From: Alphaproteobacteria bacterium
Lineage (GTDB): Bacteria > Pseudomonadota > Alphaproteobacteria > UBA828
DNA: 64,000 bases
Reading direction: 5' to 3'
NCBI GenBank assembly: GCA_022826665.1
Contig: JAJDUK010000005.1
Coordinates: forward strand, 55,262-119,261
The stretch's first letter is position 1; every line of letters starts with the position of its first letter. A program made the translations under genes and the position numbers. Of the stretch, positions 4,038-36,769 are shown one piece after another. The notes beneath the pieces were generated by a model, which ran no database searches, was not told the origin of the DNA, and worked only from the letters and a program-made list of their open reading frames with translations.

Positions 4038-4117
4038 GCCGGCGCCAAGGCGTTTGGGCCCGGCTGTCTATGGCCGGGCCGCGGCACCAAAATTAGGGAC
4101 CGACTACGGTCCGAAGA

Positions 4118-4741: not shown

Positions 4742-4798
4742 GGCTGCATCCTCCGTCTCTCTTCCGCGCCAGCTTAGCACGCCCCGTGCCGGACGCGC

Positions 4799-5230: not shown

Positions 5231-5279
5231 GTCGCGCGTCCGCGAAGCCTGACGCGCGCGGAATCTAGCTCTTGCAGGT

Positions 5280-6065: not shown

Positions 6066-6080
6066 GGCCCTGCGCCCCCG

Positions 6081-16857: not shown

Positions 16858-16934
16858 TGGCGCGCCCGGCAGGACTCGAACCTGCGACCCCAAGCTTAGA
16901 AGGCTCGTGCTCTATCCGGCTGAGCTACGGGCGC
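16858..16934 (-). tRNA. tRNA-Arg (anticodon UCU)
   Basis: The reverse complement folds as a canonical cloverleaf. Acceptor GCGCCCG/CGGGCGC, D-arm GCTC/GAGC, anticodon stem CGAGC/GCTTG with loop CTTCTAA (anticodon TCT), T-arm GCAGG-TTCGAGT-CCTGC, encoded CCA. Confidence 0.85.
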
Positions 16935-19374: not shown

Positions 19375-19580
19375 AGGAGGCTGCGCGGAACCGGACCTGC
19401 GCTATCATGCGGCGCCGACAGGGAGAGAACTCCGGGCTAGCGCACATCAAGTCCTTCTGTGGCGTTTGCTGTCCTCTCCTGCCGCAGATAATATCCAACG
19501 TAATCAGTAGGATATCTCCAAACGACGATTCTTGCAGTCACCCGAAAGCTCCGCTAGTCTCATTCATAACGTGGGACAGA

Positions 19581-20753: not shown

Positions 20754-20981
20754 GATTTGCGGTGGTGATCGTCGTGGGTCGAAAATCCCGGTCCGCTGCT
20801 GGCACAGGCACGATGGGCTCGATCGGACCGCGAACGCCCTCGCATCACACCCCGCAACCGGCGCCGCTGGTCGCGCCCCGCTTGCGGGAAGCTCATGGAG
20901 GGACGCTCCAACGGACGAAGTGACCACGCGGATGTCCTCGACGAACTCGGCATCGGTACGGGCGCTCTGCACGCGCCCCGT

Positions 20982-21248
20982 TCACCTGGGTTGAATTCGC
21001 CGGCGTCCCGCTCCGTGACGCGCGGAATCGCCGCACACGCTGTCGCGCGAAGCGATCCACTCGTCGATCCCTCGTGCAAGCCACCCGACCGCGCGCGAGG
21101 TCAGCCGGATGGCGGCCGGAAAATCGCCGGCCTTGATGAGGCGGTAGATCGACGCCTTGGAAAGCCCGGTGCGTTCCATCACCGCGGGCAGGCGCAGTAC
21201 TCGCCCGTCAACGTCCACGGCGCCGTTCTCCCTGTCAGATCCGTTCAT
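20982..21248 (-). CDS. alpA: AlpA family phage/island regulatory protein (excisionase-like HTH)
   Basis: RLPAVMERTGLSKASIYRLIKAGDFPAAIRLTSRAVGWLARGIDEWIA matches the AlpA/MerR-like HTH pattern. Convergent with the integrase. Confidence 0.7.
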   Translation of the reverse strand: MNGSDRENGAVDVDGRVLRLPAVMERTGLSKASIYRLIKAGDFPAAIRLTSRAVGWLARGIDEWIASRDSVCGDSARHGAGRRRIQPR

Positions 21249-21604
21249 GCGATCTCACCGATGTCTCGATCGGGAACAAACGTTGTCGTTCGTCATGGCC
21301 GATACCTCCCGGTTACGAGGTCCCGGCAAGGCGATTCATGGCGGCTAGGGTAAGCTCGTACCGATGTGGCGGCCACAACTTCAGTTAGGGAAAATCCTGC
21401 GCTTGGCACATCGGTGCCAAGCGTGCTCTCACGTGCTCAAATTCGAACACGTGCGACCGAACTTCCCACTGATCCCCGAACTGATCGCCGCCCTCAACCG
21501 CGCCCGCGACAAGGGTACCCACGAGCGTCTGATTCGACGCCTCGCCAGGGCCATGACGCGGCAACTACGTAAACGCATCAAGACCCGGCGGACAATCCGG
21601 CCCT

Positions 21605-21877
21605 CTACGGCTTAGCCGGTTCCACGATGATGCGGCCTCGCCCTCGCCTGATCCGGTAGCCGCCGCGCGGGATCGCCAGAGTACCGTCCTGCACCATCGG
21701 CCAGAGCGTGTCGACGATCATGGCCGCGTTGCCGTCCTGCTTCCCCTTTGCCGTGTCCTGCGACGCCAGCCATTCCGCGAACGCGCGTGTCCCTACCTCG
21801 TCCCCCACCGATTTCCTGAGCGCGTTGAGTTTGCGGAGCTGCCCCTTCGTCAACGTCGACTCATCGAATTCTGTCAT
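21605..21877 (-). CDS. hypothetical protein
   Basis: Start at MTEFDESTLTKGQLRKLNALRK inside ORF 21605..21937. No motif. Confidence 0.3.
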   Translation of the reverse strand: MTEFDESTLTKGQLRKLNALRKSVGDEVGTRAFAEWLASQDTAKGKQDGNAAMIVDTLWPMVQDGTLAIPRGGYRIRRGRGRIIVEPAKP

Positions 21878-22271
21878 CGCGGTTCCTCTTCCGGCTTCTT
21901 CTGCTGAACGAATCGATGCCCCTGTAGCCGATACCAATAGCAGCGCCGCTTCCGCCGGCCCATGTCTCGTTGCCGGTATCGGCCCGGCCTTCCGCGATCC
22001 GCATCTTCAGAACATGAGACGGCCGAAACGTCACGACGCGGCGCGCCGGGATCGGCGCCGGCTCCCCGGTCTTCGGGTTGCGGCCCTCCCGTGCCCGTTT
22101 GTGGCGAACCCTGAAACTGCCGAACCCGGAGATCGTCACCGCCCCCCCCGCCGACAGCCGTTCGGCGCACCCCACGACCGCCATGTCCACGCGCGCCGCC
22201 GCAGCGCGGCGCGGCAGGCCGGTCTCGCGGTGGACGGCGTTCGCCAGATCGGCGCGCGTCACTGTCGCCAT
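21861..22271 (-). CDS. HU/IHF family DNA-binding protein (unusually long C-terminal tail)
   Basis: TRADLANAVHRETGL...GGAVTISGFGSFRVRHKRAREGRNPKTGEPAPIPARRVVTFRPS is the HU/IHF arm signature. About 40 extra C-terminal residues. Confidence 0.65.
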   Translation of the reverse strand: MATVTRADLANAVHRETGLPRRAAAARVDMAVVGCAERLSAGGAVTISGFGSFRVRHKRAREGRNPKTGEPAPIPARRVVTFRPSHVLKMRIAEGRADTGNETWAGGSGAAIGIGYRGIDSFSRRSRKRNRDDRIR

Positions 22272-22447
22272 GGCAGAACAGCACTCCGGATTTCGGTCAG
22301 CGTAGCCCCGCCACAGCTTCGGTCAAATCTCAAGACTGCTCACTTGCGAACCAGGCAACTGCGTGCAGCCCATGTCATTCGCCGGCCGGCGCGCTTCAAG
22401 GCGGAATGCGCCAGTGCGCCGTTGCGGAGCGCAGCTGACGCCTGCGG

Positions 22448-24052
22448 CTAAATCCCGATTCTCTTGCTCAGGCTCAGGTAGTTTCGACCGTCTTTGCGCC
22501 GGTATCGCAAGTCGTCGACATACGTGCGCACCAGATGCAGGCCGAGGCCGTCCACCACCGTTTCTTCCTGTATCGTGTCCGGACCCGGCTGGAACATGAG
22601 GGTATCGGGATCCAGCTCCCGGCCGTCATCCTCGAAGCGGATTGCGAGGCTGCGGGATTCCTCGTTCATCTGAAGGTGGACGTCGATCCGCTGCGTGTCG
22701 GCATCGTCATGGCCATGCTCCACCATGTACATCAGTGTCTCCTCCAAACAGAGTTGTATCTGGAACCGGTCCTGTTGCGGCAGCCCGTGCCGGTCGGCGA
22801 AACCGTCCATCGCCTTCGCGACCCGTTCCAGTTCCCCGCGGCCGTTGCGCACGACCAGGCTCAAGCCTGGGGCCGCTTCCGGGGATCCGTCCCGGCCACT
22901 CGCGGCTGTCGACGGCCCCTCGCGGTCCCCTTCCGTTCGGACACCTGGCCGCTGGGCATCGGACGGCCCGTCGGCTCGCACCAACGCGCTCAACGCCGCG
23001 ACATCGATCGCCGGTGTAGTCGACTTGGGTGGCCAGCTCCGGTCCCCGGCCTTTACGACGAGGCTTCTGACCGCTTTCCTCAAGTCGGCCACAAGAGCCA
23101 ACTGCTGCAGCGTGTCCAATGTCTGCGCATGCTCCGGCAGGCACAGGTGCCGCCAGAGCATCTGATAGGACAGGACGTCATCGCCGGCGAAGTCGAAGAT
23201 ATCCATCGGCGAGGCCGGATCTTCCGGCGAGAGCCCCGCGGCCCGGAGCAGGCAGGCGAGCGCCCCGCGGGTTATCCGGTCTTCCTCGAACCCGTCTTCC
23301 GTTCTGTGCAAGGCGCCCAACACGGCGAAGTAGCCCGAGTTCAGTGGCTGGCTGAAGCTCCACAGCGGTCGCGTGGGGTTGGTCAGGTAGCGCCGCTCGC
23401 CGCCCCGGTGAGGGCGCAGCAGGGCGGCGTTGCGGTGGGGAAAGCGGTCGAACAGAAGCAGGGTCTCGGCGTGCTCTATCGCGGCCTTGACGAACGACCA
23501 GCCGACGACCTGGTTGACCCTTCGCTGGTCGGGCGGCGCAGCGGCGATGAGGTCGGCACTCATGCGCGCCGTTTTCTCGACGCAGAGCTCTTGCAGCTTC
23601 AAGTCCTCCGCGTGACCCAGAGGAAAATACATCCATATGCGCTCGATAACGTTGTAGTGCGCAAACTCCCGATCGGTCTCGCAGGCTTGCCGGGAAATCG
23701 AAGCGGTCACGGGATCGTTCGCGTAGGCCAGAGCCGTGCCGCGATAGACGCTTCGCGGGAATTGGTCGAGGACGATCAACTTCGCCAGAATGCCCTTCGG
23801 AGTGTCCCAGACCGGGTCGCCGAAAAAACGGTCCACCCCCTCTCGGTGCATCTGCTCGCACCATTCGCGCTGAACCCGAAGATCGTTCGGATCCAGGGTG
23901 CTTCTGGTGAACGGTCCGACCCGCCACCGTCGCATCGCCTGCTGCCAGTTCTCGCGGGAAGCATCGGCCGGCGTGCGCAGGCGACCGAGCCAGAAATCCA
24001 GCACCGCCTCCGGAGAGCGCTCCGCAATACGGACATGGTCGTCAGCGCCCAT
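22448..24052 (-). CDS. DUF924 domain fused to RsbW/SpoIIAB-like anti-sigma serine kinase (HATPase_c_2-like) domain
   Basis: Start at MGADDHVRIAERSPEAVLDFWLG (frame arithmetic). N-terminal half has the DUF924 block LIVLDQFPRSVYRGTALAYANDP. C-terminal 140 aa has CLEETLMYMVEHGH, RFEDDGRELD and GLGLHLVRTYVDDL resembling N, G1 and G2 boxes. Confidence 0.55.
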   Translation of the reverse strand: MGADDHVRIAERSPEAVLDFWLGRLRTPADASRENWQQAMRRWRVGPFTRSTLDPNDLRVQREWCEQMHREGVDRFFGDPVWDTPKGILAKLIVLDQFPRSVYRGTALAYANDPVTASISRQACETDREFAHYNVIERIWMYFPLGHAEDLKLQELCVEKTARMSADLIAAAPPDQRRVNQVVGWSFVKAAIEHAETLLLFDRFPHRNAALLRPHRGGERRYLTNPTRPLWSFSQPLNSGYFAVLGALHRTEDGFEEDRITRGALACLLRAAGLSPEDPASPMDIFDFAGDDVLSYQMLWRHLCLPEHAQTLDTLQQLALVADLRKAVRSLVVKAGDRSWPPKSTTPAIDVAALSALVRADGPSDAQRPGVRTEGDREGPSTAASGRDGSPEAAPGLSLVVRNGRGELERVAKAMDGFADRHGLPQQDRFQIQLCLEETLMYMVEHGHDDADTQRIDVHLQMNEESRSLAIRFEDDGRELDPDTLMFQPGPDTIQEETVVDGLGLHLVRTYVDDLRYRRKDGRNYLSLSKRIGI

Positions 24053-24509
24053 GTCTCGATTGTCCCATCTCGCCCGACAGGCCCATCGACCGGCGCAACC
24101 TAGGGGGAAACCCGGTCGCGCCGCTATCCTCCCAAGTGGGAGGTTTCGTTCGAAAGGGGGGTCAAAAAAACTCGGCCCGAACGATGTTCCTGCGAGATTT
24201 TTCGGTGTGGCGGGGCGGCGACGGCGCGCCGGCATGGCCCAGTGCCAGCGCGGCCAGGGTCAGGTTCTCCAGCACATCGGCCGCCGCCATCGCGAGCGGC
24301 AGAAGATAGAGCGGCGCGGCGCGCCGCCACAGTCGGACCAGCAGGATCGTCAGCAGCCGGTCGTAGGCGGTCCGCCTGCTGTTCCCGACCGGCTGCTGCA
24401 AGAGCGAGATGCTGACCCTGCGCTGGTGGGGGTCGATCTCGAATTCGGCGAGCTCCATCTCGCTGCAGCCTAGACCGGCCCTCGCGCGGACCTGCTGCCA
24501 CCGACGGCG

Positions 24510-24866
24510 GTGGCGCTGTTGGAAGCGCTGCCGCGACGGATGGACAGCCCCTGGGTGTTTCCGGGCAACGACCGCTACGGGCGCTACAGCAGCGGCGGAC
24601 TCGACCATGCCTGGCGGACCGTGCGGGCAGCGGCCGGGCTGGAGCACGTGCGGATGCACGACCTCAGACACAGCTTCGCGTCCACGGCGCTCGCCCTCGG
24701 AGAAAGCCTGCCGATGATCGCCAGGCTCCTAGGCCACAGCCAGATCAAGACGACCGCCCGCTACGCCCACCTTGTGCGGCAATCGGTGAAGACCGCCGCC
24801 GACACAGTCGCGGACAGCCTCGCGGAAGACCTGGGCCCGCCCCCGGTCGCTCCGTCCACCGCCTGA
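24510..24866 (+). pseudogene. 5'-truncated tyrosine recombinase (C-terminal catalytic fragment only)
   Basis: 118-aa ORF with MHDLRHSFAS and GHSQIKTTARYAHL (R-H-R-Y catalytic region). No N-terminal core-binding domain upstream in any frame. Confidence 0.6.
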
Positions 24867-25436
24867 CCGGCGGCGCGCATTGACCGGATTGGTCTCGGGC
24901 CGCGGCATCGGCTGCTTGTCCCGGACGGCCCCGCGTCGGACACGGCTCTACATGTACGCAATACCGTCGCGCGTCAGATTGATGACCTTCTCGATGTTTC
25001 CCTCGTCAAGTTTGGAAAGGCGCGATTCCGGCATCCCCAGGGCGGCCGCCAATTCGCTCCTTCGCACGATTGTTGTTCGGCGCGCATGTTGGGCGCCGAT
25101 CGCCGTAGTAAAGCGTTGATTTGCTTCGATTCCGAGGGGTCAAACTTCGACGCCGAACAACAGTCGGCGGCCATCATTGATGCCAAATTTCCTTCGGCCT
25201 CGCCGCCGGCCGGCAAGGTCAAGGAGGCAGGGCGGCCCAATTCTTCGTCACGCCCGGAAGATGCGCCATGTCCGGTCCCAACGCGTTTGCAAGGCTCCAC
25301 GAAGCCTGAATCAGTGGAATCGAAATCACGCTGACCCCCGACGACATGGACCTGCTATTCGGCGCAAGTCCTTTTGTTCTGGGGTATTTCCTTCTATACA
25401 AACCCTCAGGCGATCTAGTCGCGAAGAGGACGTGTC

Positions 25437-25988
25437 ATGAAGCCAGCAGTGGCCGTTGTCGATTGGTATGGGCCATACACTCTTGAAGAGGCACGAACCG
25501 CCACCCCAGACTTTGGGGATGGCATCTACATGGCCACCGGAGCATGCAAGTATCAGCGCGCCGTACGGCCTCAGTATTTGGGAATAACATCAAGTCTTTC
25601 GTCAAGACTAAACGGAGACCATCATAAGTTGTCACTGGTCACTCGAGAGCAGGAACTATGGCTAGGGGAAATCGCCAGTTATAGACGGCCTGGTAGGAAG
25701 ACAAAAGCTACCGATAGAATGCTTGACTTGGCTGAATGGGCGCACATCTACTTTCTACAGCTACCCCTCAACGAGAAAAAAAGAGCACAACCTCCAGATT
25801 ATCCGATTACGGTATACAATCGGTGGTGGCGCAACGATTATGCAACTCCACATCGCCGACGTCCACATCAACGATGGCCCGACCTCATCGATTTTGTTGA
25901 CTGCGATTACCCGGCGAAAGTTGTCTGGTTTGGACGGCGTCAGGTCATAAGGCCCGTGCTTGACTTCAAGAACTCACATGTAGTTTGA
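25437..25988 (+). CDS. hypothetical protein (183 aa), first gene of low-GC island
   Basis: Clean ORF in the low-GC segment. No recognisable motif. Confidence 0.4.
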   Translation: MKPAVAVVDWYGPYTLEEARTATPDFGDGIYMATGACKYQRAVRPQYLGITSSLSSRLNGDHHKLSLVTREQELWLGEIASYRRPGRKTKATDRMLDLAEWAHIYFLQLPLNEKKRAQPPDYPITVYNRWWRNDYATPHRRRPHQRWPDLIDFVDCDYPAKVVWFGRRQVIRPVLDFKNSHVV

Positions 25989-26073
25989 AGTCCGTGCTAG
26001 GCGCACTCCACCGCCTTCAGCCGCTCTACATGCGTAGAGGAGATGATCACACATCCAGTCCAAGAACTGAGCT

Positions 26074-26583
26074 CTATGTATTCAGTACGTTCATGCCACT
26101 GGCTGTTTCCATGACCAAGGCCACATGCTCGAGAAATTTGCGTTGCGCATTGTCGGCTAAGTCCACGTGAGTTGTGTCATCACCTACCGTCATATCCACC
26201 GATCCAGTTGCGATGTCGACCTCCACCGTGCCGCCGATCGTCGGGTGTTCTTGAAGGGCCTTGCGTATTCGAATGTTAGTATCTTGCGATCGCCCGGATT
26301 TGCGAAATTGACTAAACCTGGGCCGCAACTCGACCGTTTCTCCTACATAACACTTCGTACGCCCTTCACCGTAAAGGTGGAACCTGTATAGACCGGTCTC
26401 ACGCGTAGTCTCTGGAAACGCTGGGTCGCCCTTGTCGTCCCATGTGATGCGACCGATGCGTCGCCATCGTACCTCGACCGAAAATCGTATCGACTCAATT
26501 CCCGTTACCACCATCTCAGTCGCTGTTGTTCCGATCATCGCAGTTGCTCCGTGACCTCCCATCTGTTGATGATGGCACACCAT
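26074..26583 (-). CDS. GIY-YIG-like nuclease candidate
   Basis: GLYRFHLYGEGRTKCYVGETVELRPRFSQF resembles GIY-(x10)-YVG followed by the conserved Arg-x3-F helix of GIY-YIG domains. Last gene of the dcm operon; start may be MIGTT at 26538. Confidence 0.4.
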   Translation of the reverse strand: MVCHHQQMGGHGATAMIGTTATEMVVTGIESIRFSVEVRWRRIGRITWDDKGDPAFPETTRETGLYRFHLYGEGRTKCYVGETVELRPRFSQFRKSGRSQDTNIRIRKALQEHPTIGGTVEVDIATGSVDMTVGDDTTHVDLADNAQRKFLEHVALVMETASGMNVLNT

Positions 26584-26616
26584 ACTTACGCGCCCAGCGC
26601 CAGCTCCAATACGTTC

Positions 26617-27669
26617 TCACCGCTCATCACCTTGGTCATCAAGATAGCGATGAATTGCCCGTGCATGATGCTCTGCGAACTTCGGCGGGAACGCATTTCC
26701 AATCATTTGTGCTGCTGGATATCTCCCCCGGGAAAGGTCGAATCTATAGCTTTTAGGGAAACCCTGAAGCAGAGCTGCTTCTCGCAATGTAATAGCTCTA
26801 TCTTTTTCCGGGTGTAAGAATCGCCCTTTCGAAGGATTAATGCATCCTCCAGTTATAGTCGGTGCTTCCTTCCTCCATTCCATACGACCATACACATCCC
26901 AAAATCCCTCTAACCTCTTGTGACATTCCAGCTGGTCATCAACGGGCAAGTCCGCTCTACTGCCCCCATCCTTGGGTATGCGGCAAATCAATTCGTAAAC
27001 CTTATGCGCTCGCCTCACTTTGTAATTGTGCGCTGGATCATTCGATTTCTCTGGCGCTGGCAACTTTCGTATAGCTTCAGACACTGTTCTGCGCCGTGAG
27101 GGGCAAGCAAATGGAGGCAATCCCTTAAGGCCTCCCAACAAAAGCAAGCGACGTCGCCGCTGCGGTACACCGTACCGTGCGGCATCAAAGACATCCACAC
27201 CAGTACGGTAATCTAGACAATGAAGTTCGCTCCTTAGCCGCTCCAATCTCTCGTCACTCATGAGAGCAGGTACGTTCTCCATCATAATGGCTTTCGGCCG
27301 AAATACCCTAACGAACCGAACAAACTGGAACACCAGCTCGTTTTGTGGATCGTTTGCGTCCCTCGCTCCATTCAGAGTGCGCAAGGTCGAATATCCTTGG
27401 CAAGGAGGGCAACCCGCTATGAGATCCATCTCCCCGGCTCTTATGCCAAGTACTTTCATCAGTTTTCGCGGCTTGATTGTCGTAATGTCACACTGGAACA
27501 TTCGGGTGTTTCGGTGGTTCTTACGATAGGTTGACGCAGCCAAGGGATCGTTATCGATCGCTGCCACCACGTCGAAGCCAGCTCGACGAAGACCGAGCGA
27601 CAGCCCGCCACAACCTGCAAATAGATCTACCGCTCGCCGTTCCGCCTTCTCGTATTGGAACGATCGCAT
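26617..27669 (-). CDS. DNA (cytosine-5)-methyltransferase
   Basis: All C5-MTase motifs in order: FAGCGG (I), GCPPCQGYS (IV), MENV (VI), QRRRR (VIII), IGNAFPP (X). Start codon overlaps the upstream gene stop. Confidence 0.9.
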   Translation of the reverse strand: MRSFQYEKAERRAVDLFAGCGGLSLGLRRAGFDVVAAIDNDPLAASTYRKNHRNTRMFQCDITTIKPRKLMKVLGIRAGEMDLIAGCPPCQGYSTLRTLNGARDANDPQNELVFQFVRFVRVFRPKAIMMENVPALMSDERLERLRSELHCLDYRTGVDVFDAARYGVPQRRRRLLLLGGLKGLPPFACPSRRRTVSEAIRKLPAPEKSNDPAHNYKVRRAHKVYELICRIPKDGGSRADLPVDDQLECHKRLEGFWDVYGRMEWRKEAPTITGGCINPSKGRFLHPEKDRAITLREAALLQGFPKSYRFDLSRGRYPAAQMIGNAFPPKFAEHHARAIHRYLDDQGDER

Positions 27670-29438
27670 TAATCGACCCTTCCCACAAAGTCCAAACCCA
27701 CCCGAGACAGTGAAGCCCCCAGTTTGTGCAGCAGATTCAATGCATACTCGTAGCGCAGCTGACCGACAACTCGCACTTCTTGTTCCACAAAGCTAAGATT
27801 ACCGTTCGCTGATCTCGTCGACCCTATGGTCAACATTCTTGTGCTAGCAGGGTCGAGAGAAAATAGTCCCTTATTCTTGGCGTAAACAAAGCTCAAAACG
27901 GGCTGGGCATTTCTTTGACTGGTAAACAGATATGACCTATTCTCGCGCCCGTCCAGGTTCAAGAACACACAGCGTCCTTCATTTATTTCATCTGGCCTTG
28001 GCACCGCGCGTGTATCTCTGTGCAGCTTTACCGCGATGAACGGCAGCCACTCCCCGAAGCGGTCACGACGTTCAGCTCCGCCTTGACCAGGTACCAAGTC
28101 GCAGGCCGGGCTCAAACACACCCAGTAATCATCGCCACTCTGAAAGACATGTCCAGTAGTTAAGTGACGTCCTCCGGGGGGTCTGCTGCATGCGAGTACG
28201 TTGTGCTCGATCAATGCTGTCGTTTTTTCCGATTGTTCAGTGAGATCAACCTGAAAGCGTCTATTGCACACTTGTTTGCTGTTCTCACCGTTTGAGTTTT
28301 CAAATTGCACCAGTTCATCGGCGAAGTCACTGACACTTGGGATCACCTCATCAATAAGCAGCTCTGCGTGCCATTTCACGCTTTCTGAAATGTATTGAAG
28401 GCGCACGTCACTGCTCGCGTCCAAGAGCCTGCTGTACCAATAGGCAAGTGCACGGCGTCGAGCAAGAACGTGCTCCTGAACAGGAACACCTTGTTCGTCT
28501 ACCTCCGCCCGCAACCGCGACAAAAGCAGCCGAGAAGGCGTTGGATTCCATCCCGAAAGCGCTTGACTCAGTCGTTGCAAGAGATCGTCGTGCTCTCCCT
28601 TACGAGCAAACGCTATGAAAATGGAACCACTCTGAATCCAATAAGGGTCGGATAGAGCCCACGCAAACTCTCCAACATAGTTGCTGTGCAGGCTCTCCGC
28701 CAATGCCCTTTCCCGCATGACAAGCGCGTAGATTAGCAACGTGCGACGATCATCCTCATCCAAGCCGACGTCGACGCAAAGTGCGTGAAATTCCGCAAAG
28801 GGCTGCTCCGCCGCCTCCATCGTGCCAAACACTTGACCAGGCTCTCGACGGTATTCGAGATATGCCTCCGTCCCAATGCTAGCCAAGAGCGCGTCTTCGA
28901 ACCCCTCCCGTTCGAGCTCCGCTTCATCCAACAGACGCTGGGCTGCTTCGGCGCCAGCACCGCCGCGGGTTAGGTCCTGAGATGCCGAGAGAAGACCGAT
29001 GCGTACCTGCTGAAACACTTCATCCAGCTCTAGGGATGTGTAAATGATTACCAAGTTGAAGTGCTGATTGCCGGCGACATTGCGCAAAATTTCGATTGCT
29101 CTTGAGCCGTCTTCTCGCCGAGTCCGGTCTAACTCATAGTCCAGGACTAACAAGTCCGATTGATGCAAATGCCGTGCAACCTCCCTCGCGCCCTCCTCAG
29201 GTACGTTCTGTCCGTCGTGAATATCCAGTAGGAGCGGCGTATCTCTATCCCGAAACTGCCTTATCAGCTCTCGTACCCGATCTGGCGATTCGCGCCATCT
29301 CTTTTCAACACCTTGGTCCGATTCTGGAGCAGCCAATATGTCGCTATACGTCGGATAGTCATCATCTACGATGAGAACCGAACGAATGGGATCAACATAG
29401 GCTTTTCCTATGAACGCATCGTAGGACTCACACATCAC
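27669..29438 (-). CDS. receiver-like (CheY-fold candidate) N-terminal domain protein with large uncharacterised C-terminal domain
   Basis: N-terminus IRSVLIVDDDYP...TPLLLDIHDGQ...DLLVLDYEL...NLVIIYTS resembles beta1 acidic pair, phospho-acceptor Asp and beta4/beta5 of REC domains, but is degenerate. C-terminal 430 aa has no recognisable motif. 11-nt overlap with the upstream GHKL gene. Confidence 0.5.
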   Translation of the reverse strand: MMCESYDAFIGKAYVDPIRSVLIVDDDYPTYSDILAAPESDQGVEKRWRESPDRVRELIRQFRDRDTPLLLDIHDGQNVPEEGAREVARHLHQSDLLVLDYELDRTRREDGSRAIEILRNVAGNQHFNLVIIYTSLELDEVFQQVRIGLLSASQDLTRGGAGAEAAQRLLDEAELEREGFEDALLASIGTEAYLEYRREPGQVFGTMEAAEQPFAEFHALCVDVGLDEDDRRTLLIYALVMRERALAESLHSNYVGEFAWALSDPYWIQSGSIFIAFARKGEHDDLLQRLSQALSGWNPTPSRLLLSRLRAEVDEQGVPVQEHVLARRRALAYWYSRLLDASSDVRLQYISESVKWHAELLIDEVIPSVSDFADELVQFENSNGENSKQVCNRRFQVDLTEQSEKTTALIEHNVLACSRPPGGRHLTTGHVFQSGDDYWVCLSPACDLVPGQGGAERRDRFGEWLPFIAVKLHRDTRAVPRPDEINEGRCVFLNLDGRENRSYLFTSQRNAQPVLSFVYAKNKGLFSLDPASTRMLTIGSTRSANGNLSFVEQEVRVVGQLRYEYALNLLHKLGASLSRVGLDFVGRVD

Positions 29439-32391
29439 CGAACTTTGCTCCCCGAAACGTGATCAGAAAGTTTGCTCCGTCCAAAGGCATCCTCGCCTTG
29501 TTGGCCTCGTACTTTATTCGGTGACCTCCTGCCGACAAATTCGCCCGGCATAGATACAGTCCCACTCCGCGTCCCCCTCGTGCCTTTCGTGTGAAAAACA
29601 AGGTGAAGAGGTTGCTCACATCTTCTTCATCCACTCCGGGACCATTGTCAGAAACAACCACATCATCTTCGATAACGCCAAAAATGATCCGGCGCTTTTT
29701 TACCTCAGTGCTGGCCAGCCAATAGATGCTGTTGTTCACTAAGTTGATGAACACAGGATAAAGCCGGGACTGCTGATCAAATACCTGCAAACGAAGAAAC
29801 TCATCGGTGGCCTCCAACGCAATTTGGTTTCGCGCCAAAATCGGCTTAAAGAAGTCCGAGGTATATCGAAATACGTCTTCACCTGTGATCCATTTCTGAA
29901 TCTTTTGGCCCGCTAATCGGAGAGGTGACAGGAACCGCAGCTGGTCGGTAAGCCCTTCGTATGCAAATTCGATATCCTTCGCGGCTTTGCTTTCCCGGAT
30001 ATCTCCCGGCAAACGACGCAACCCATCAGCGAGAATGTCGTCGAAGGCTTGAAGATCATGTGCGACGATTTCCACCGCTATGCCAAGCTGCGCCAAGCTA
30101 TTCAGCCTGTCCAGCTCCGCGCGCAATTCGCCCACTTCGTCCGCGTCGAACGTCGCCAAATGCAGCAGGTCTACACTTTCCCCCAAGCTCTCGAGCGTTG
30201 TTATATATGGCAGCAATATATCCCGGTTCTCTTTGTCAAACCTCTCCTTCAATTTATCCATCGCGGCGGAAGCTTCCAAATACGGCATCGCTTGCGCGCG
30301 CACTCGATCCAGCAGCGGTTCGGCTTCTCGAGTGAAAGCGTCCATCCTCTCCTTGACCAGTTCTCTGACGCGTTCGTACTCTGCGCGCTGTAATCTCTCC
30401 GCTTCCTTACCCCAATTATCCAATCGCCGTTTGAGTTCTCGGCCTTGTCGGGTCAATTGTTCAAGGAGTAAATCCTCTGGCCTTGCCGGGTCGACACGTT
30501 CGATCTGCTCTTCCAACTTTTCTCGCAACGCGGCGACCGCGGTTCGGAAAGCACGATAGTTCCGTCGATACTCGACATATTGGCTCTCCAAGCGCGCGCT
30601 CAACTTCTTCGGCTTCACCGGTAGTGTGAAGTCAGAGAGGCGCCCTACAAACGCATCGAGGTCTTCCTTTGCTGGTCCAATTTGCCTTTCTCTCGTTATA
30701 TCAAGTGATTCCACATAGCTCTCAATCTCGTGAAGGACCGCCGGTAGCTCTTCCGCAAAGTCTTTCAAATTCGCGCGAAACGCGCGCGCCTGCCTCTTGT
30801 GAAGCTTCTCGCGTTCTTTATTTGCCTTTTGACGACGATTGTCCTCCCTGATGTCCGGTAAGAAGTCTCCGCGAAAACTGGACTCGGAACCAAAGTACAA
30901 CCTAGCGGATCTCTGCAAAACATTCGCAACGATTTCCCGAAACGTTTTTGCGGCATGGTTGTCTAGAAGCCCTTCTCTCCCCGCCTTGTCCTTGAGGTTC
31001 GGATTAGTCTCGCGTCCGATTGAGAGACGCCCGAACATTTGTCTGTGATTCCAGAATTCACGACCGGCACTCTTGCTGCGGCGTGACTCGATTTCGAAAA
31101 AATCGTTATCTGTACGGCCATAGGGAAGAACACGAAGACCGTCTCGAAAAACCATGAAGCCAGAGTACTTGTTCGCGAGATCGCGATAGCGGTTGAAGTC
31201 CGCTTCGGTGTGCGTGCTGTTTATGGCGGTGAATTCCATTGACGCGATATAGAGGCCGAATGGGCCCACCCGGGTGTCCGCGCGGGTCGGAATTGTTAGA
31301 TCGCGCGGTGGCGGAATGACGCATTCGTCCGTCAGGTCTTTTCCGAAAGCTCTAATGGAGCCTGTGAATACGCCGTCTTCTCCCACCCGCCCCACAATGC
31401 GATGCTCCATGTCATCAATTTGCCGTCTGTCGAACTGTCTCTCGGAACCGACAACTAAATCCGCTGTTCCATTTGTCCAGGCGCGTACGGCATACGAAAA
31501 CTGCGGATCGCTGTTCGACAATGCCTTATCCGAGGGATCTACGAAAGGGTCCACAAAACTCGAAAGCGTCTCGAAGAAACGATCACGCGTCGCCTGTTGC
31601 GCAACCTCACTGTAGTTCCGCTCGATCTGTGCCCGTAAATCATAGTTGAGGCCGGATATCAGTAGCGCCGTACCCCTATCCGACGCATCTGTCCACACAG
31701 GCCAAGGCTCAATGTGTTCCGGTTGGAAAGGCAGCTCAAGAATGTTGGCGATAATGTCTTCGGAGCGAGCGACCTGTATTCCACTTTCCTTCAGTCCGTC
31801 AATCTCCGACCAAGCCTCGGATATTCGAGCAGATCGCCCGGGTTCTCTCCCGCCCTTAACATTTTCCGACAGAGTCTTGGCCAGTAGCGGCAATTCTACG
31901 AATAAATCAGCTCTGTCTTTGAAATCCACAAGAGGAATTTGAATGTCAGAAAGATTGAGAAAGGGATTCTCAAACAATCGCCAATCGATCAGCGCCGCGA
32001 TGAAAGGCGAATCTTTTCTCTTGGACACCAGCAGCAACAAGGGACCCAAGTTCGCACACGAAAGGCGCCCGATTCCCTTTTGGCCTTGGCGTGGCCGAGG
32101 CTTCAGGCCGTTGCGATCCGCTCGACTTCTCGGATCTGCAGTGGCCTTCGCCTCAGTGCCCACCACCAGCCAGTGTCGCTGGAATTCCTCCCCGCTCATT
32201 CCATGCCCGTCGTCCACGATCGCCGCGACAGGCTCCGGGTCCTTGAAGAGGTGGAGTTCGACCATTCTCGCGTAGGCGTCATACGCATTCTTCCAGAGCT
32301 CGGATATCGCCGTCGGGCAATCCGCGATCTGCTCCCGACCCAGGTGGTCTACGGTCCGTGCCCGAGTCTGAAATGCGATTCCTTGAACCAT
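29428..32391 (-). CDS. dual Bergerat-fold ATPase: N-terminal MORC/MutL-like GHKL domain plus C-terminal histidine-kinase transmitter (HisKA-like H-box + HATPase_c)
   Basis: N-terminal ELWKNAYDA (ExxxNxxDA), DDGHGM, GQKGIGRLS. C-terminal IVAHDLQAFDD (H-box-like), INLVNNSIYW (N box), SDNGPGV (G1), LFTLFF (F), GGRGVGLYLCR (G2). Confidence 0.65.
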   Translation of the reverse strand: MVQGIAFQTRARTVDHLGREQIADCPTAISELWKNAYDAYARMVELHLFKDPEPVAAIVDDGHGMSGEEFQRHWLVVGTEAKATADPRSRADRNGLKPRPRQGQKGIGRLSCANLGPLLLLVSKRKDSPFIAALIDWRLFENPFLNLSDIQIPLVDFKDRADLFVELPLLAKTLSENVKGGREPGRSARISEAWSEIDGLKESGIQVARSEDIIANILELPFQPEHIEPWPVWTDASDRGTALLISGLNYDLRAQIERNYSEVAQQATRDRFFETLSSFVDPFVDPSDKALSNSDPQFSYAVRAWTNGTADLVVGSERQFDRRQIDDMEHRIVGRVGEDGVFTGSIRAFGKDLTDECVIPPPRDLTIPTRADTRVGPFGLYIASMEFTAINSTHTEADFNRYRDLANKYSGFMVFRDGLRVLPYGRTDNDFFEIESRRSKSAGREFWNHRQMFGRLSIGRETNPNLKDKAGREGLLDNHAAKTFREIVANVLQRSARLYFGSESSFRGDFLPDIREDNRRQKANKEREKLHKRQARAFRANLKDFAEELPAVLHEIESYVESLDITRERQIGPAKEDLDAFVGRLSDFTLPVKPKKLSARLESQYVEYRRNYRAFRTAVAALREKLEEQIERVDPARPEDLLLEQLTRQGRELKRRLDNWGKEAERLQRAEYERVRELVKERMDAFTREAEPLLDRVRAQAMPYLEASAAMDKLKERFDKENRDILLPYITTLESLGESVDLLHLATFDADEVGELRAELDRLNSLAQLGIAVEIVAHDLQAFDDILADGLRRLPGDIRESKAAKDIEFAYEGLTDQLRFLSPLRLAGQKIQKWITGEDVFRYTSDFFKPILARNQIALEATDEFLRLQVFDQQSRLYPVFINLVNNSIYWLASTEVKKRRIIFGVIEDDVVVSDNGPGVDEEDVSNLFTLFFTRKARGGRGVGLYLCRANLSAGGHRIKYEANKARMPLDGANFLITFRGAKFGDV

Positions 32392-32738
32392 GCCCTCGTT
32401 CCGCGCCCGTCGCCGACCCGATCAGACGGCCCGCTCAATGCCGAACAGACTCCGCACCAACAGCCGAATGAGGCCGACGCCACCACATATAGCATATACT
32501 ACTAAGGATGCCCCAATATGGAGGCGAAGACCGCTCACGGTTCGACGAGCCTTGGGTTCGGCTCCCTCGACATCTCCACTGAATTCGCCCCATCCCGCCT
32601 ACGCTCCAGCCTTCCAGCCACAATTTCAGCAGCCTTGATGCCGGCCTTTTGCTTCCTAGCCTGATTCTTGCCCGTAGTGATCCTCCCCGCTCAAATCCTG
32701 CACTCCCGTGTCCGGTTAGTGCAATATGGCTTCCGCCG
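32392..32738. promoter_or_regulatory. divergent intergenic region between GHKL operon and vsr (inferred promoters)
   Basis: 347-bp non-coding gap between divergently transcribed genes. No motif resolved. Confidence 0.3.
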
Positions 32739-33203
32739 ATGACCGACACAGTCGATCGCAACACCCGTTCTCGCATGATGGCGAGTGTCTCCAGCAAGGA
32801 CACGGCGCCGGAACTCGCTCTGCGTCGGGCACTTCATGCGCTGGGCCTGAGATACCGACTCCATTGTCGGAATCTCCCCGGCACTCCCGATCTGACCTTT
32901 CCTCGCTTCCGAGCCGTCTGTTTCGTACACGGCTGCTTTTGGCACCGCCACCCCCGCTGTCACCGTACGACAGACCCCACCACACGCCCGGAATTCTGGC
33001 ACGCCAAGTTTCAGGCCAACGTGGAGCGTGACCAACGCGCACGACAGCAGCTTCTGGCCGCTGGATGGCGAGTGGCAATCATTTGGGAATGTGCGCTGCG
33101 CAAGGATCGAGCGGAACGTACATCCCACGTGGTGGCCCAATGGCTACACGGCGACGACCGCGAATTCGAAACGCCTCTCTTCGAAACCCGACACCAACAA
33201 TGA
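32739..33203 (+). CDS. vsr: very short patch repair endonuclease
   Basis: ATG at 32739 by frame arithmetic. TPELALRRALHALGLRYRL, FVHGCFWHRH and WRVAIIWECAL are canonical Vsr blocks. Confidence 0.85.
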   Translation: MTDTVDRNTRSRMMASVSSKDTAPELALRRALHALGLRYRLHCRNLPGTPDLTFPRFRAVCFVHGCFWHRHPRCHRTTDPTTRPEFWHAKFQANVERDQRARQQLLAAGWRVAIIWECALRKDRAERTSHVVAQWLHGDDREFETPLFETRHQQ

Positions 33204-33372
33204 TCTCCCTACCGTATTTTGAACCCGACACCGAGGGCATTTTTCCTCCGATTCTGCTGGCCCTCCACGCATCGCGCTGATCGCCTCGCATGCCCACTTG
33301 TTGCCGACGTCGACACCAACCGGGTGATTCGAATTGCCTTACTGCACTTGGAAGTTGTCCTGATACTTGAGT

Positions 33373-33560
33373 TCATCGCGCGACGAAACCGGACCATTCT
33401 TCCATCAGCACCCGCCGCCGCTCGAACAGATCCGTCCGGCGATAAGCGGCCTCCACCCGATCGGAATTCACGTGAGCCAAGGCGAGCTCGCAGACTTCGC
33501 GGGGTACGTCGGAGCACTCCGCCGCCCAGTCCCGAAACTGGGACTGGAACCCGTGCAGCC
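33373..33560 (-). pseudogene. P4-type integrase C-terminal fragment (about 60 aa)
   Basis: LHGFQSQFRDWAAECSDVPREVCELALAHVNSDRVEAAYRRTDLFERRRVLMEEWSGF is near-collinear with the C-terminus of the intact integrase at 20590-20750. No upstream part is present. Confidence 0.6.
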
Positions 33561-33566
33561 CGCACG

Positions 33567-34181
33567 TTAGCTCTGCCGACCGAGGTGGCCGAAGTCGATT
33601 TCGTACGGCACACCGGTGAGGTTGGTGAGTGTGACGATGACGCGGAACGGGCTGTCGACGTAGGGACGGGTCAGCCAGCCGGCCGGCAGCGGACCGCCCT
33701 GGAAGGCTGCGGCCGCTTTCGTCGCCTGGCCGATCGCCCTGTCGTTGAACAGCGACTTCAGCGGTTGGCCAGCGGCGATGTCGTTGGTCTCGACGAAGCC
33801 GGCGATGTCCAGTTCCTGCACCCAGGTCTTGTAGAACGGATTGCGGTCCCACTCGACCTCAGACGAGGCGGGCGAGATGTGCGGGAAACCGAAGGCAAGC
33901 GCGCGGGCAAGGATGGCGGCGCACACGCCGCCGCCGGATGCGCCGGCCGCGACACGGATCTTCACGTCGTGGTCGGGCACGTCATCGTCGTTCGTCTTCG
34001 CCACGTACCAAGCGTCCAGCGCCTCGATGAGCTTGTCCAGGAATCCCGCCGTGTAGGCGCCGGCCGAGACCGTGCCGCCCAACACCAGAGCGACCTCGAA
34101 GGTGCCGTCGGGCAGGCTCCGCGTGACGTTGCTTTCCAGGACCCGCAGGATCTCTTTGTTTGTCGGCGCTGGCATCGTCAT
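33567..34181 (-). pseudogene. patatin-like phospholipase, 3'-truncated (lacks catalytic Asp block)
   Basis: Start MTMPAPTNK. Has VLGGTVSAGAY (oxyanion loop), GASGGG (GxSxG) and TNLTGVPYEIDF (TDLxTG block). The ORF ends about 10 aa later, before any DGG/DGA motif, right at the integrase fragment. Confidence 0.55.
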
Positions 34182-34370
34182 TCCCCTTTCGCTGCGTACC
34201 ACCAACTCTACATGGGTACAGGGCTTAACATCAGAGATCACTATCGGATGGAGGCGACTGCCTAGCTTCGCACCCTCGGGCTCGTCACGCTTGGCTGCGA
34301 ATGAGCGATCCACTAACATTCCAACTGAACCAGCCCCCGAGAACAGACGATAAGGCTGAGGTAACCAGTT

Positions 34371-35132
34371 ATGTTGAAGTCTGTCGGTAAGCCACGCCTC
34401 AGGAACGCCCTCAAGAAACTGAGGCGAATTCCATTTAATCGCGAGGATCCCTACAATCTGGCAACGGCACCTGTGGAGATGTTGGAGTTCCTCGCAATGA
34501 TTTCTGGGTTAAAACCAGTTGTACTTATTGGACGGGGATTTGATGATCAGAATTGGATTAGGGGGGTTCAAGATCTCGCTGAGGATATGCACTTGCATGT
34601 GATCGAAGGTCCCAAGTGGGAAGCGATTCCGGAATACAGCGGCTTGCCAAATTGGTTCGCTTTGATAGACCAGAAGAAGCTCTCAGAGAATTCGGTTGTG
34701 TATATTAGCAAATCAAAGTCAATCTCTAAATGTGTTAGGAGAATTGTGGATGCTAGAAGTATTACTATCGAGGAAGAGTCAGCTATCCTTGGTTATCCAA
34801 CATGTTGTGTAAAAGACCATTATTACAAAGCTGAAAGGATGAACAGAGGCTTTAACCTTATGCTGGAGCGGCTCTCTAGTGGTGACAAGTCAGAAATGAT
34901 GCGACTTGTTAGGGAGGACGTACCCATGTCGCCTGAGACTGATGAGGAGATAGAATGCATGAGAGAGGCGACACGCACAGTCGTTGCTCCCTACACGAGC
35001 ATTGTGATGTGTCCTTCCTGCGAAGATGATCAGGATAGTCCAGCTCGTATAGTCTCAAAGAATTACAAGATTCTTGCTGATAGTATCGATCCCCGTCTAG
35101 CGTTAGATATAAACCTTCATCAAAAAGTGTAA
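34371..35132 (+). CDS. hypothetical Cys-rich protein, very AT-rich (foreign)
   Basis: 253-aa ORF with GC about 45% in a 65-70% GC genome. Contains GYPTCCVKDHY and CPSCEDD Cys clusters. No family recognised. Confidence 0.45.
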   Translation: MLKSVGKPRLRNALKKLRRIPFNREDPYNLATAPVEMLEFLAMISGLKPVVLIGRGFDDQNWIRGVQDLAEDMHLHVIEGPKWEAIPEYSGLPNWFALIDQKKLSENSVVYISKSKSISKCVRRIVDARSITIEEESAILGYPTCCVKDHYYKAERMNRGFNLMLERLSSGDKSEMMRLVREDVPMSPETDEEIECMREATRTVVAPYTSIVMCPSCEDDQDSPARIVSKNYKILADSIDPRLALDINLHQKV

Positions 35133-35340
35133 GCTGCGCGTAATCGCGACCTACCCTTCTAGATTGTGGGACATAGTACCGGCAATTTCAAACGCCAGCT
35201 TTTCACGAAACAGTTTCAATCGCGTGGATTTCTTCCAGTCTCGCCATGCTTTCCCAGGGCCCGGTCCGCCCCATATACCCCTAGCCCAGCCGGGCCCCCA
35301 CAGTTAGCACGATGCGCCGACCATCACGGACCTCGCCTGC

Positions 35341-35772
35341 TCAGCAGGCTCGTCCAACCGAACCCCGAAGACGCTCGATGTCCTCGCGAAAGGGATCGCG
35401 GCTTTCCGCATCGAAGTCCTCGGGATGCGAATCCATCCAGGCGATCGTGCGCTCGTAATATTCGATCGCCCGTTCGGTTTCGCCGCGCGCTTCGCAGACC
35501 ATCGCCTTACGCATGAGCCAATCGTGCACCTCGGGATAGCGGGTCCTCAGCTGCTCGCACACGGCGTCCGCTTCGTCGAGGCGGCCTTCATCGATCAGGT
35601 TGACGACGCTGTTCGAGAGCCGGTCCAGGTCGGTCTCGGCCCAGTGGTATCCATGTTGCGATGCCGCCGGCGCGGTAGGCACATAGGCGGCGCGGTCGCG
35701 GTCCCAGCAGCAGCGCTTGTACTTCCTGCCGCTGCCACAAGGGCAAGGTTGGTTCCTGCCGATCTTCACCAT
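35341..35772 (-). CDS. SEC-C metal-binding motif protein (YchJ-like)
   Basis: Start [22 protein letters not shown] (SEC-C motif) placed by frame arithmetic inside ORF 35341..36303. Confidence 0.6.
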
Positions 35773-35953
35773 TAACGCCTCGTCGCCGGCATTTCCGGCT
35801 CTCGGACCCCCGATCACATGTAGCCCGCTCGCCGGTCGCCAGCAACATTCCCGACCTTCCGCGGCGCGCCGGCAGGAGGCAGCGGCCGGCCTCTTCCGGG
35901 CGAATTCGGGGACCGGAAAGTGGCCCTCGCGCCACCGCCGGGGAGGCCGACCC

Positions 35954-36769
35954 ATGTCCAGCCGCATCGCCGACATTCTCGTGCCGCCGCGATGCCGGGA
36001 GATGATCCGCGCCGGCGCGCTCATCGCCATCAACACCAGCGGTGGCAAGGATTCACAGGCGATGACCATCCTGCTGTCGCGGATCGTTCCCCGCGACCAG
36101 ATCGTGGCGGTCCACGCCCCGCTCGGCGAGGTCGAGTGGCCGGGTACGATCGAGCATATCGAGGCAACGCTACCCGCCGGCGTGCCGCTCGTCATGGCGC
36201 CGGTTTCGTCCGGCAAGTCGCTGCTCGACCACGTCGAGGAGCGTGGCATGTTTCCAGGAGCCCGCCAAAGATGGTGTACGGCGGCCCTTAAACGGGGACC
36301 CATCGAGCGCGAACTGCGCCGCTATCTGAAGGCTCATCCCCGCTTCGGCGGGCGCCTCGTCAACGCCATGGGCATGCGCGCGGAGGAAAGCCCGGCACGT
36401 GCCAGGAAGGCGCCGTGGAGGCGCAACGACCGGATGAGCGTCGCGGGCCGCGAGGTCTTCGACTGGCTGCCGGTCTTCGACCTCTCCACGGACGACGTCT
36501 TCCGCGTCATCCACGACGCCGGCCAGTCGCCGCACTGGGCCTACGCCGCCGGCATGTCGCGGCTGAGTTGCAGCTTCTGCATCCTGGCGTCCCGCGCCGA
36601 CCTTCGCCGCGCGGCCGAGCTCCGCCCGGCGCTCTACCGCACCTATGTGGAGCTTGAGCGGCGCATCGATCACACGCTCTCGCCGTCGGGCATCCCCCTG
36701 CCGGAACTGACCGGCGTCTCCCCGGCAACCGCCCGCCACGACGACCCGACCGGCCTGAACAGCATCTGA
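35954..36769 (+). CDS. phosphoadenosine phosphosulfate reductase family protein (PP-loop ATPase)
   Basis: ATG at 35954. Has INTSGGKDS (SGGxDS PP-loop). Confidence 0.7.

Follow-up and report, generated by a model that had tools for sequence, protein, structure and literature searches.

Closest described systems

The closest described relatives of the locus reported here are the histidine kinases carrying HEF_HK (PF19191) and their Response_reg_2 (PF19192) partners, two domains that Bellieny-Rabelo, Pretorius and Moleleki defined (Genome Biol Evol 2021; PMC8011034). The locus consists of a kinase gene at positions 29428..32391 of a 64,000-nucleotide stretch of alphaproteobacterial DNA (contig JAJDUK010000005.1; this whole stretch is referred to as the window) and of the receiver and DNA methyltransferase genes that follow it. 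In the 2021 study, which was purely computational, HEF_HK proteins were described as soluble, the HATPase_c_3+HEF_HK+HATPase_c combination ('group 1') was the predominant architecture (174 of 222 proteins), and the GHKL domain at the N-terminus was noted to occupy the position of a sensor domain. The HEF_HK gene was linked to the Response_reg_2 gene in 91.6% of 644 regions, the surroundings of the pair were enriched in C5-methylases, Vsr and Type II nucleases, and the C-terminal ~300-440 residues of the receiver had no domain assignment; the family was proposed to have probably branched off the paraMORC ATPases of Iyer et al. 2008 (PMC8011034). The window locus shares all the defining features, namely the group 1 architecture, solubility, an adjacent Response_reg_2 gene and linkage to a C5-methyltransferase and Vsr, and its kinase is almost certainly a member of the HEF_HK family. 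The architecture, which the original prediction for this gene had regarded as unusual, is thus the family's usual form, with existing Pfam models and thousands of homologues, which NCBI labels 'ATP-binding protein', 'histidine kinase' or 'response regulator receiver domain'. However, the window locus differs from most HEF_HK loci, in which the order is methyltransferase (MTase), histidine kinase (HK), response regulator (RR), in having the order HK-RR-MTase and a divergent Vsr gene. Its H-box reads H-D-L instead of the commoner H-E-L, and its sub-clade has two extra small genes, orf154 and orf183, that set it apart from the family at large.

Three other groups of proteins provide a frame for comparison. 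Prokaryotic MORC and paraMORC proteins (Iyer, Abhiman and Aravind 2008; PMC2292703), which include GHKL-Shedu (paraMORC3, VcSduA; PMC12137116), share with the window kinase a GHKL domain with intact ATP-binding motifs, probably a transducer-like domain, C5-methylase and Vsr neighbours, and a mobile, sporadic distribution. However, paraMORCs end in nuclease, TIR or uncharacterized domains, or pair with superfamily II (SF-II) helicases, whereas the window protein ends in a kinase transmitter and has a receiver partner; a kinase fusion is not mentioned in Iyer et al. 2008 (PMC2292703). Kinases of the HisKA type, such as CpxA, HK853, ThkA and FixL, share a DHp hairpin with a His-acidic pair and a catalytic ATP-binding (CA) domain with N, G1, F and G2 boxes, but the window kinase lacks their membrane segments and their PAS, HAMP or GAF inputs and carries a second Bergerat-fold ATPase in the sensor position. 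Detocs (DtcA/DtcB/DtcC) is a His-Asp two-component pair that acts as an anti-phage system, in which the receiver carries an enzymatic effector and the His and Asp are essential for phage defence (Rousset et al., bioRxiv 10.1101/2023.01.24.525353); it alone provides an experimentally validated precedent for such a pair serving directly as an immune system. The likeness to Detocs is confined to the proposed logic, in which a cytoplasmic kinase addresses a receiver with a C-terminal enzymatic effector instead of a DNA-binding domain, and homology is limited to the generic kinase and REC folds. Detocs has its own TPR sensing, buffer receiver (DtcB) and PNP ATP-nucleosidase effector and no methyltransferase, and the window locus, which has no TPR, PNP or stand-alone receiver gene, is not a Detocs system. 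The best explanation of the locus, which we consider reasonably probable, is a methylation-based restriction or defence module whose restriction arm is under the control of a cytoplasmic His-Asp phosphorelay.

A MORC-like ATPase head and a kinase core in one polypeptide

The kinase gene lies on the minus strand, an orientation that the original prediction had left unstated, and comprises a single unbroken open reading frame (ORF) of 987 residues with an ATG start. More than 100 homologues of 983-995 residues align across 100% of the protein, homologues of this length occur in hundreds of independent assemblies, and the identical protein is present on two other, independent metagenome contigs. 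Because the frame is uninterrupted and the full-length homologues number over 100, the two ATPase modules belong to one gene, as had been proposed, and a division into separate genes is refuted.

Pfam assigns the N-terminal region to the GHKL-type HATPase_c_3 (PF13589; residues 27-130, E=5.3e-16) and not to another fold, and the C-terminal region to HATPase_c (PF02518; residues 874-965, E=1.2e-13), with HEF_HK directly ahead of the second ATPase (residues 768-825; 25.2 bits, Pfam cut-off 24.1 bits). For most of the 120 best homologues, precomputed Pfam assignments list the same three families. The sequence boxes on which the gene had first been singled out are all present: in the head, ELWKNAYDA (residues 31-39), DDGHGM (60-65) and GQKGIGRLS (103-111), and in the kinase core, AHDLQAFDD (777-785, including His778), NLVNNSIYW (883-891), SDNGPGV (914-920), the F-box LFTLFFT (928-934) and GGRGVGLYLCR (939-949). 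Their key residues, E31, N35, D38, D60, G62, G64 and K105 in the head and N887, D915, G917, G919, G940 and R941 in the CA domain, are invariant in 118-119 of 119 homologues; H778 is likewise invariant, and position 779 is D or E in all 119. This set of motifs is far beyond chance, and the claim that a GHKL head of non-kinase type stands upstream of a genuine kinase core is borne out by both the domain matches and the invariant motifs.

The AlphaFold monomer model of the kinase (predicted local distance difference test, pLDDT, 73) was compared with the PDB using Foldseek. Its C-terminal ~240 residues match the DHp+CA cores of CpxA, HK853 and YF1 (the YF1/FixL chimera) with E values of ~1e-8 to 1e-9, in agreement with the expected kinase-type helical domain ahead of the C-terminal ATPase, and a profile search of PDB sequences gave a match to the DHp+CA of ThkA at profile positions 756-958 (9e-10). 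The N-terminal half matches the ATPase modules of MORC2 and MORC3 over 516-517 alignment columns (9cdh_B, 5e-8; 5ix1_A, 4e-7), with template modelling scores of 0.43-0.51 on the target and with the most conserved loops, at residues 422-446 and 469-477, having pLDDT below 50 in a model of moderate confidence. Pfam models of the S5/transducer type gave no matches in the kinase; from fold match and position, residues ~240-478 are probably a transducer. The protein is thus a probably complete MORC/paraMORC-like ATPase head, consisting of a GHKL domain and a probable transducer, joined to a kinase core in one polypeptide.

The head is of the MORC/MutL type, with structural matches to MORC2 and MORC3. 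The mutL model TIGR00585 matches only residues 27-71 (E=1e-4; 21 bits, cut-off 180), the MutL match in the profile search of PDB sequences is marginal and confined to profile positions 28-87, and the C-terminus is a kinase core, so that the protein is not a MutL. The nearest curated relatives of the head are the BbrUII/HgiDII restriction enzymes (NF050001; residues 12-128, E=1.6e-16), which partner with C5-methyltransferases. The kinase is not a member of that family, as its match is limited to the first ~120 residues and scores 60 bits against a cut-off of 550.

The most conserved block of the kinase is the near-invariant segment of residues 412-482, FRDGLRVLPYGRTDNDFFEIE...NLKDKAGREGLLDN (FRDGLRVLPYG...NLKDKAGREG), which falls within the region that Foldseek superposes on the MORC transducer domain. 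The transducers of MutL, GyrB and MORC have a conserved lysine that detects the gamma-phosphate of the ATP held by the partner head, and by analogy with these proteins the block may be the place of such an ATP-sensing lysine. The transducer-like region is followed in the model by ~270 residues of long helices leading to the DHp domain, and this linker (residues ~479-745) has no Pfam matches. Neither the kinase nor the receiver protein reaches the usual threshold of 1.6 for a transmembrane segment on the Kyte-Doolittle scale over 19 residues (maxima of 1.07 and 0.82). The residue at His+4 (position 782), which in HisKA-type kinases is a phosphatase-linked Thr or Asn, is Ser, Ala or Thr in the family, with Ala or Ser as the difference from the HisKA type, and a 2026 preprint also notes the absence of this Thr/Asn for PF19191 (bioRxiv 10.64898/2026.02.27.708494). 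This composition hints at a kinase that may lack the usual phosphatase activity.

The co-translated receiver protein

The start of the receiver gene overlaps the 3' end of the kinase gene by 8 nucleotides (ATGTGTGA), and the receiver stop codon and the methyltransferase ATG share 1 nucleotide (TAATG). On the evidence of these junctions, the kinase is translationally coupled to the receiver protein and to the C5-methyltransferase. The N-terminus of the receiver protein has the REC fold and matches Response_reg_2 (E=4.5e-22), and its acidic pair D24/D25, phospho-acceptor D99 and T133 (588-residue numbering; D25/D26, D100 and T134 in the 589-residue numbering) do not vary across ~115 homologues. 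The idea of a phosphorelay with an ATPase as its input, put forward in the original prediction, is strengthened by this overlapping Response_reg_2 gene and its invariant acceptor set; the part of the idea that places the ATPase in the sensor position had already been published. Because both ATPase modules, the H-box and the receiver residues are invariant and the kinase and receiver genes overlap, the pair is likely to form a functional phosphorelay.

Beyond the acceptor site, Lys279 is conserved in 100% of 116 divergent receiver representatives and comes after a beta-strand at residues 272-278, which suggests that it is the canonical beta5 lysine of REC. If so, the receiver domain contains a helical insertion of ~115 residues (153-265) on its usual signal-transmitting face. 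The remaining ~300 residues form a helical bundle and a beta-rich domain, an output module in which N412, G428-H429, C445-D446, R561, E563, Y564 and R578 are strictly conserved among the same 116 representatives. This module has no Pfam matches in 70 members, and none among PDB sequences or viral structures. A search with the module alone against 1.84 billion representatives gave 521 clusters (50% identity); in the best 150 of these, apart from shorter, fragment-like products, the module sits at the same position of ~590-residue proteins, so that it appears, as far as these sequences reach, to be exclusive to the HEF_HK/Response_reg_2 family. This exclusivity and the set of invariant residues extend what had been published on the family. 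Comparison by eye of H429/C445 with caspase-like, sortase-like, L,D-transpeptidase-like, PTP (CX5R) and PD-(D/E)xK sites was unconvincing in spacing and secondary structure, and these candidates were rejected.

Natural variation also affects the receiver gene. In the sister island L084 (1-8648), whose kinase is 80% identical, an insertion sequence (IS) element splits the receiver gene while the methylase gene and orf154 are intact, so that this island offers a natural receiver knock-out in which the methylase persists. L084 also contains four copies of a 461-residue UPF0236-type transposase within 18 kb.

A three-gene core and its variable nuclease neighbours

The organization of the family was surveyed in 80 loci carrying relatives of the receiver protein (25-44% identity) on contigs from one genome per species, with ORFs scored against the window's proteins; the taxa covered were alpha-, gamma- and delta-proteobacteria, Binatia, Dadabacteria, Paceibacterota and others. 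The kinase gene was immediately upstream of, and overlapped, the receiver gene in 79 of the 80 loci, the lone exception being cut by a contig end. A C5-methylase gene was found in 75 and Vsr in 43; the methylase gene lay upstream of the kinase gene in the majority (MTase-HK-RR) and downstream of the receiver gene in the others, as in the window. When the other ORFs within 4 kb were clustered, no recurrent family was found besides integrases (10 loci). The conserved core is therefore exactly three genes, which adds to the published description of the family.

The core trio itself contains no recognizable nuclease. Among the nearest flanking ORFs on each side of every locus (122 ORFs), ~21 had nuclease domains (HNH_2, 7; Mrr_cat, 5; HNH, 3; NOV_C, 2; NA-iREase1, 2; HpaII, 1; NgoMIV, 1), and integrases, resolvases and ArdA were also present. 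A tightly coupled extra ORF on the same strand occurred in 28 of 79 loci. These extra ORFs are not homologous to one another, and six of the ten that were scanned are nucleases of five unrelated families (HNH_2, HNH, NOV_C, Mrr_cat and HpaII). These counts indicate that the trio is frequently, but not usually, accompanied by a variable nuclease as a fourth gene; a further addition to the published description is that, where such a tightly coupled gene is present, it often encodes a nuclease, with at least five unrelated families represented. In the window, this slot is filled by orf154.

The only PADLOC result for the pair was a weak 'REase_II' match to the kinase head. A phage origin, suggested by matches to PHROG families 8137 and 7659, was rejected, as both families trace to a 'remnant integrative element' in an E. 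coli prophage record (AJ304858), which at positions 2738-6332 encodes a truncated kinase of 614 residues, annotated as 'histidin kinase-like protein', and a receiver protein. PHROGs holds these families for non-phage proteins because this remnant lies in a prophage record.

Genomic setting of the window locus

The operon block has a guanine-plus-cytosine (GC) content of 51-53%, against a background of 66-72% (host, 70%), and in a longer metagenome contig that includes this island, its genes encode a tyrosine integrase, an AlpA-type regulator and an integrase fragment (Table 1). The low GC and the integrase-bearing content identify the island as horizontally acquired cargo. The original prediction had not covered this methyltransferase, Vsr and mobile-island setting, from which the probable biological role of the system derives. 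The methyltransferase is also matched by TIGR00675 (dcm; 1.6e-47) and by PADLOC MTase_II (2.3e-83). The Vsr ORF opens at 32649, with Met31 at 32739 as its likely start, and its GC content of 61%, compared with 52-53% for the kinase/receiver/methylase operon, suggests that its history may differ from that of the trio. The gene callers of public contig L001 left Vsr uncalled.

orf154 contains the motif GLYRF-x10-CYVGET..R, and its database pointers are non-significant, comprising a PHROG 'endonuclease' (E=0.047) and, as the only PDB match, T4 endonuclease II, a GIY-YIG enzyme (E=1.3). Among 5.8 billion proteins it has only three homologues, of which two occupy the same position on the sister-island contigs, and it shares the GC content of the operon and is retained in both sister islands; it is a possible sub-clade-specific restriction nuclease. 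orf183 is 87% identical in sister island L085, above the 80% of the kinase, and gave no family, PDB or PHROG matches. A GIY...YLG string noticed by eye in orf183 was supported by no tool, and its assignment as a GIY-YIG protein was dropped. A promoter and terminator scan of 25300-33400 was uninformative, the number of sites not exceeding that in shuffled sequence.

The left part of the island (~19580-25300) has a GC content of 66%, compared with 52% for the kinase block, so the island looks composite. Its DUF924 protein carries another GHKL-type domain, of the anti-sigma-factor kinase kind. To the right of Vsr, the genes at 33567-36769 may make up another cargo module. On the far left, a host-like aminotransferase gene separates the tRNA-Arg gene from the integrase gene.

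Table 1. Coordinates of the kinase locus, its protein domains and the neighbouring genes in the window
Feature	Position	Strand	Description
HK-like gene	29428..32391	-	987 residues; MORC-like GHKL head, probable transducer, coiled coil, DHp (HEF_HK), kinase ATPase; soluble
N-terminal GHKL (Bergerat) ATP-binding domain	32002..32313	-	Residues 27-130; ExxxNxxDA, DxGxG, GxxGxG; HATPase_c_3
Mixed alpha/beta region	30958..31674	-	Residues ~240-478; probable MORC/MutL-type transducer (S5-like), from fold match and position
Long helical (coiled-coil-like) linker from ATPase head to kinase core	30157..30957	-	Residues ~479-745; from the model's secondary structure
DHp / H-box domain (Pfam HEF_HK)	29917..30090	-	Residues 768-825; predicted phospho-acceptor His778, codon 30058-30060
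Kinase catalytic ATP-binding (CA) domain	29497..29772	-	Residues 874-965; N, G1, F, G2 boxes; HATPase_c
Cognate receiver protein	27669..29435	-	588 residues from ATG 29435 (589 from GTG 29438); REC, helical region, beta-rich C-terminal module
REC core	28989..29387	-	Residues 17-149 (588-residue numbering); D24/D25, phospho-acceptor D99 (codon 29139-29141), T133
Family-specific output module of receiver protein	27702..28538	-	Residues ~300-578; conserved in 116 divergent representatives
C5-cytosine DNA methyltransferase	26617..27669	-	350 residues; DNA_methylase 1.4e-60
Vsr very-short-patch-repair endonuclease	32739..33203	+	Divergent from kinase gene; Pfam Vsr 1.6e-28, TIGR00632 4.9e-43
orf154	26074..26538	-	79 nucleotides downstream of methyltransferase; candidate GIY-YIG-type nuclease, weak evidence
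orf183	25437..25988	+	Convergent with operon; GC 51%
Tyrosine integrase with Arm-DNA-binding domain	19581-20753	+	Gene calls on L001
AlpA-type regulator	20982-21248	-	Gene calls on L001
HU-like protein	21861-22271	-	Gene calls on L001
DUF924 + HATPase_c_2 protein	22448-24052	-	534 residues; gene calls on L001
Integrase fragment	24540-24866	+	Gene calls on L001
Patatin-like fragment	33567-34319	-	Right of Vsr
ORF with CxxC pairs	34371-35132	+	253 residues; GC 45%; no homologue family; right of Vsr
SEC-C-motif/TPR protein	35341-35772	-	Right of Vsr
PAPS-reductase-like gene, then DUF2201 genes	35954-36769	+	Right of Vsr
tRNA-Arg (anticodon TCT)	16858-16934	-	Only tRNA gene of the window; 2.6 kb from integrase gene

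Proposed mechanism and alternative explanations

In the proposed mechanism, the kinase dimer would be held together by the DHp domain and the coiled coil, and ATP would drive the two MORC-like heads to close, probably on DNA in the manner of the MORC and MutL clamps. Head closure would be passed down the coiled coil to switch autophosphorylation of His778, from which the phosphoryl group would move to Asp99 of the co-translated receiver protein (Asp100 in the 589-residue numbering). The phosphorylated receiver would then activate its own C-terminal module, with its invariant Cys445-Asp446 and His429, or, as an alternative output, license a neighbouring variable nuclease, here perhaps orf154. 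The C5-methyltransferase would mark self DNA and keep the system silent on the host chromosome, and Vsr would repair the T:G mismatches arising from deamination of 5-methylcytosine (5mC). A restriction or defence role of the trio is slightly favoured, because nucleases occur as fourth genes, the head resembles BbrUII/HgiDII, and the loci are found on mobile islands that also carry integrases, ArdA and resolvases. It is further favoured because locus L028, which has no methyltransferase, carries an AspBHI-like 5mC-dependent enzyme, and because Detocs provides a precedent. In its boldest form, which we regard as doubtful, a MORC-like clamp would read DNA methylation or foreignness, fire the His-Asp transfer and unleash a new effector fold built around His429 and Cys445-Asp446, for example a thiol-dependent hydrolase or a novel nuclease, with the methylase as antidote; the trio would then be an unrecognized class of defence system.

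Several observations weigh against the restriction or defence explanation. DNA is only a tentative candidate for the input sensed by the head, which the computed features do not distinguish from other inputs. The receiver's C-terminal module, a putative effector or nuclease, has no assignable fold, and a recognizable nuclease is absent from most loci. Neither the kinase nor the receiver protein matches a defence-component model in PADLOC, and no experimental work on any member was found in the literature on the HEF_HK/Response_reg_2 family. Loci L022 and L028 have complete flanks and no C5-methyltransferase match (L028 carrying the AspBHI-like enzyme instead), so the pair is not always lethal in the absence of a linked methyltransferase. 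In the kinase itself, the HEF_HK score is barely over the Pfam threshold, the H-box has the less common H-D-L form, and the monomer model is of low confidence around the DHp domain.

As one alternative, the kinase-receiver pair may be an ordinary two-component system that controls the expression or timing of the linked methyltransferase or restriction-modification (R-M) genes, as an analogue of C proteins, with the head reporting nucleotide or DNA status; the majority of response regulators are transcription factors, yet we consider this distinctly improbable. Participation in very-short-patch repair is another possibility, in which a MutL-like head would aid Vsr and Dcm and the kinase part would modulate repair and not defence. 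E. coli MutL stimulates Vsr, and Vsr adjoins the kinase gene in the window. The combination of a GHKL ATPase, Vsr and Dcm mirrors the MutL-Vsr-Dcm relation discussed by Iyer et al. 2008 (PMC2292703). However, Vsr is present in just 43 of the 80 loci and differs in GC content here, as expected of a generic companion of C5-methyltransferases, the mutL model covers only residues 27-71 (E=1e-4), the C-terminal dimerization/endonuclease domain of MutL is absent, and the system lies on mobile islands with restriction enzymes and anti-restriction genes, which together make a repair role very improbable.

In a further alternative, the phosphorelay would leave the attack on DNA to another protein, and the phosphorylated receiver would be an adaptor that recruits or switches on a separate variable nuclease, here orf154, so that the locus would amount to a classical Type II R-M pair of C5-methyltransferase and small nuclease with an ATP-dependent checkpoint. 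This is consistent with the coupled fourth genes of at least five unrelated nuclease families elsewhere, including bona fide HpaII and NgoMIV, with the enrichment of Type II nucleases reported in 2021 (PMC8011034), and with the position of orf154 in the fourth-gene slot, its operon-like GC content, its retention in both sister islands and its weak GIY-YIG pointers. It is nevertheless unlikely, since a coupled nuclease gene is found in only about a quarter to a third of loci, the nuclease assignment of orf154 is without statistical support, and the large, strictly conserved receiver module with its invariant polar residues is more than an adaptor seems to need. The last alternative, that the kinase core is a degenerate scaffold, serving as a second ATPase or for dimerization but without phosphotransfer, or that the two halves were joined by a sequencing error, could draw on the marginal HEF_HK score and on the absence from the family of the phosphatase-linked T/N at His+4 (bioRxiv 10.64898/2026.02.27.708494). 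It is scarcely credible, given that ~115 homologues show no variation at His778, at the N, G1, F and G2 residues or in the partner's Asp/Asp/Asp/Thr set, and that a fusion artefact is already refuted by the 983-995-residue homologues in hundreds of assemblies and by the identical protein on two other contigs.

Biological implications

The architecture of the window kinase has been known since 2021, and the locus adds a member to a functionally uncharacterized family. This family joins the MORC clamp and His-Asp phosphotransfer, two paradigms not otherwise known to be coupled, and is widespread (521 clusters of the output module), residing on mobile islands among restriction and anti-restriction genes. 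The output module of the receiver protein offers a short list of invariant residues suited to mutagenesis, and since Detocs shows that two-component systems can be immune systems, the trio is worth direct testing. If the boldest form of the restriction or defence explanation is true, no earlier restriction-modification system would have been known to be gated by a two-component phosphorelay, and the locus would offer a way to study in bacteria how epigenetic marks are read by MORC ATPases.

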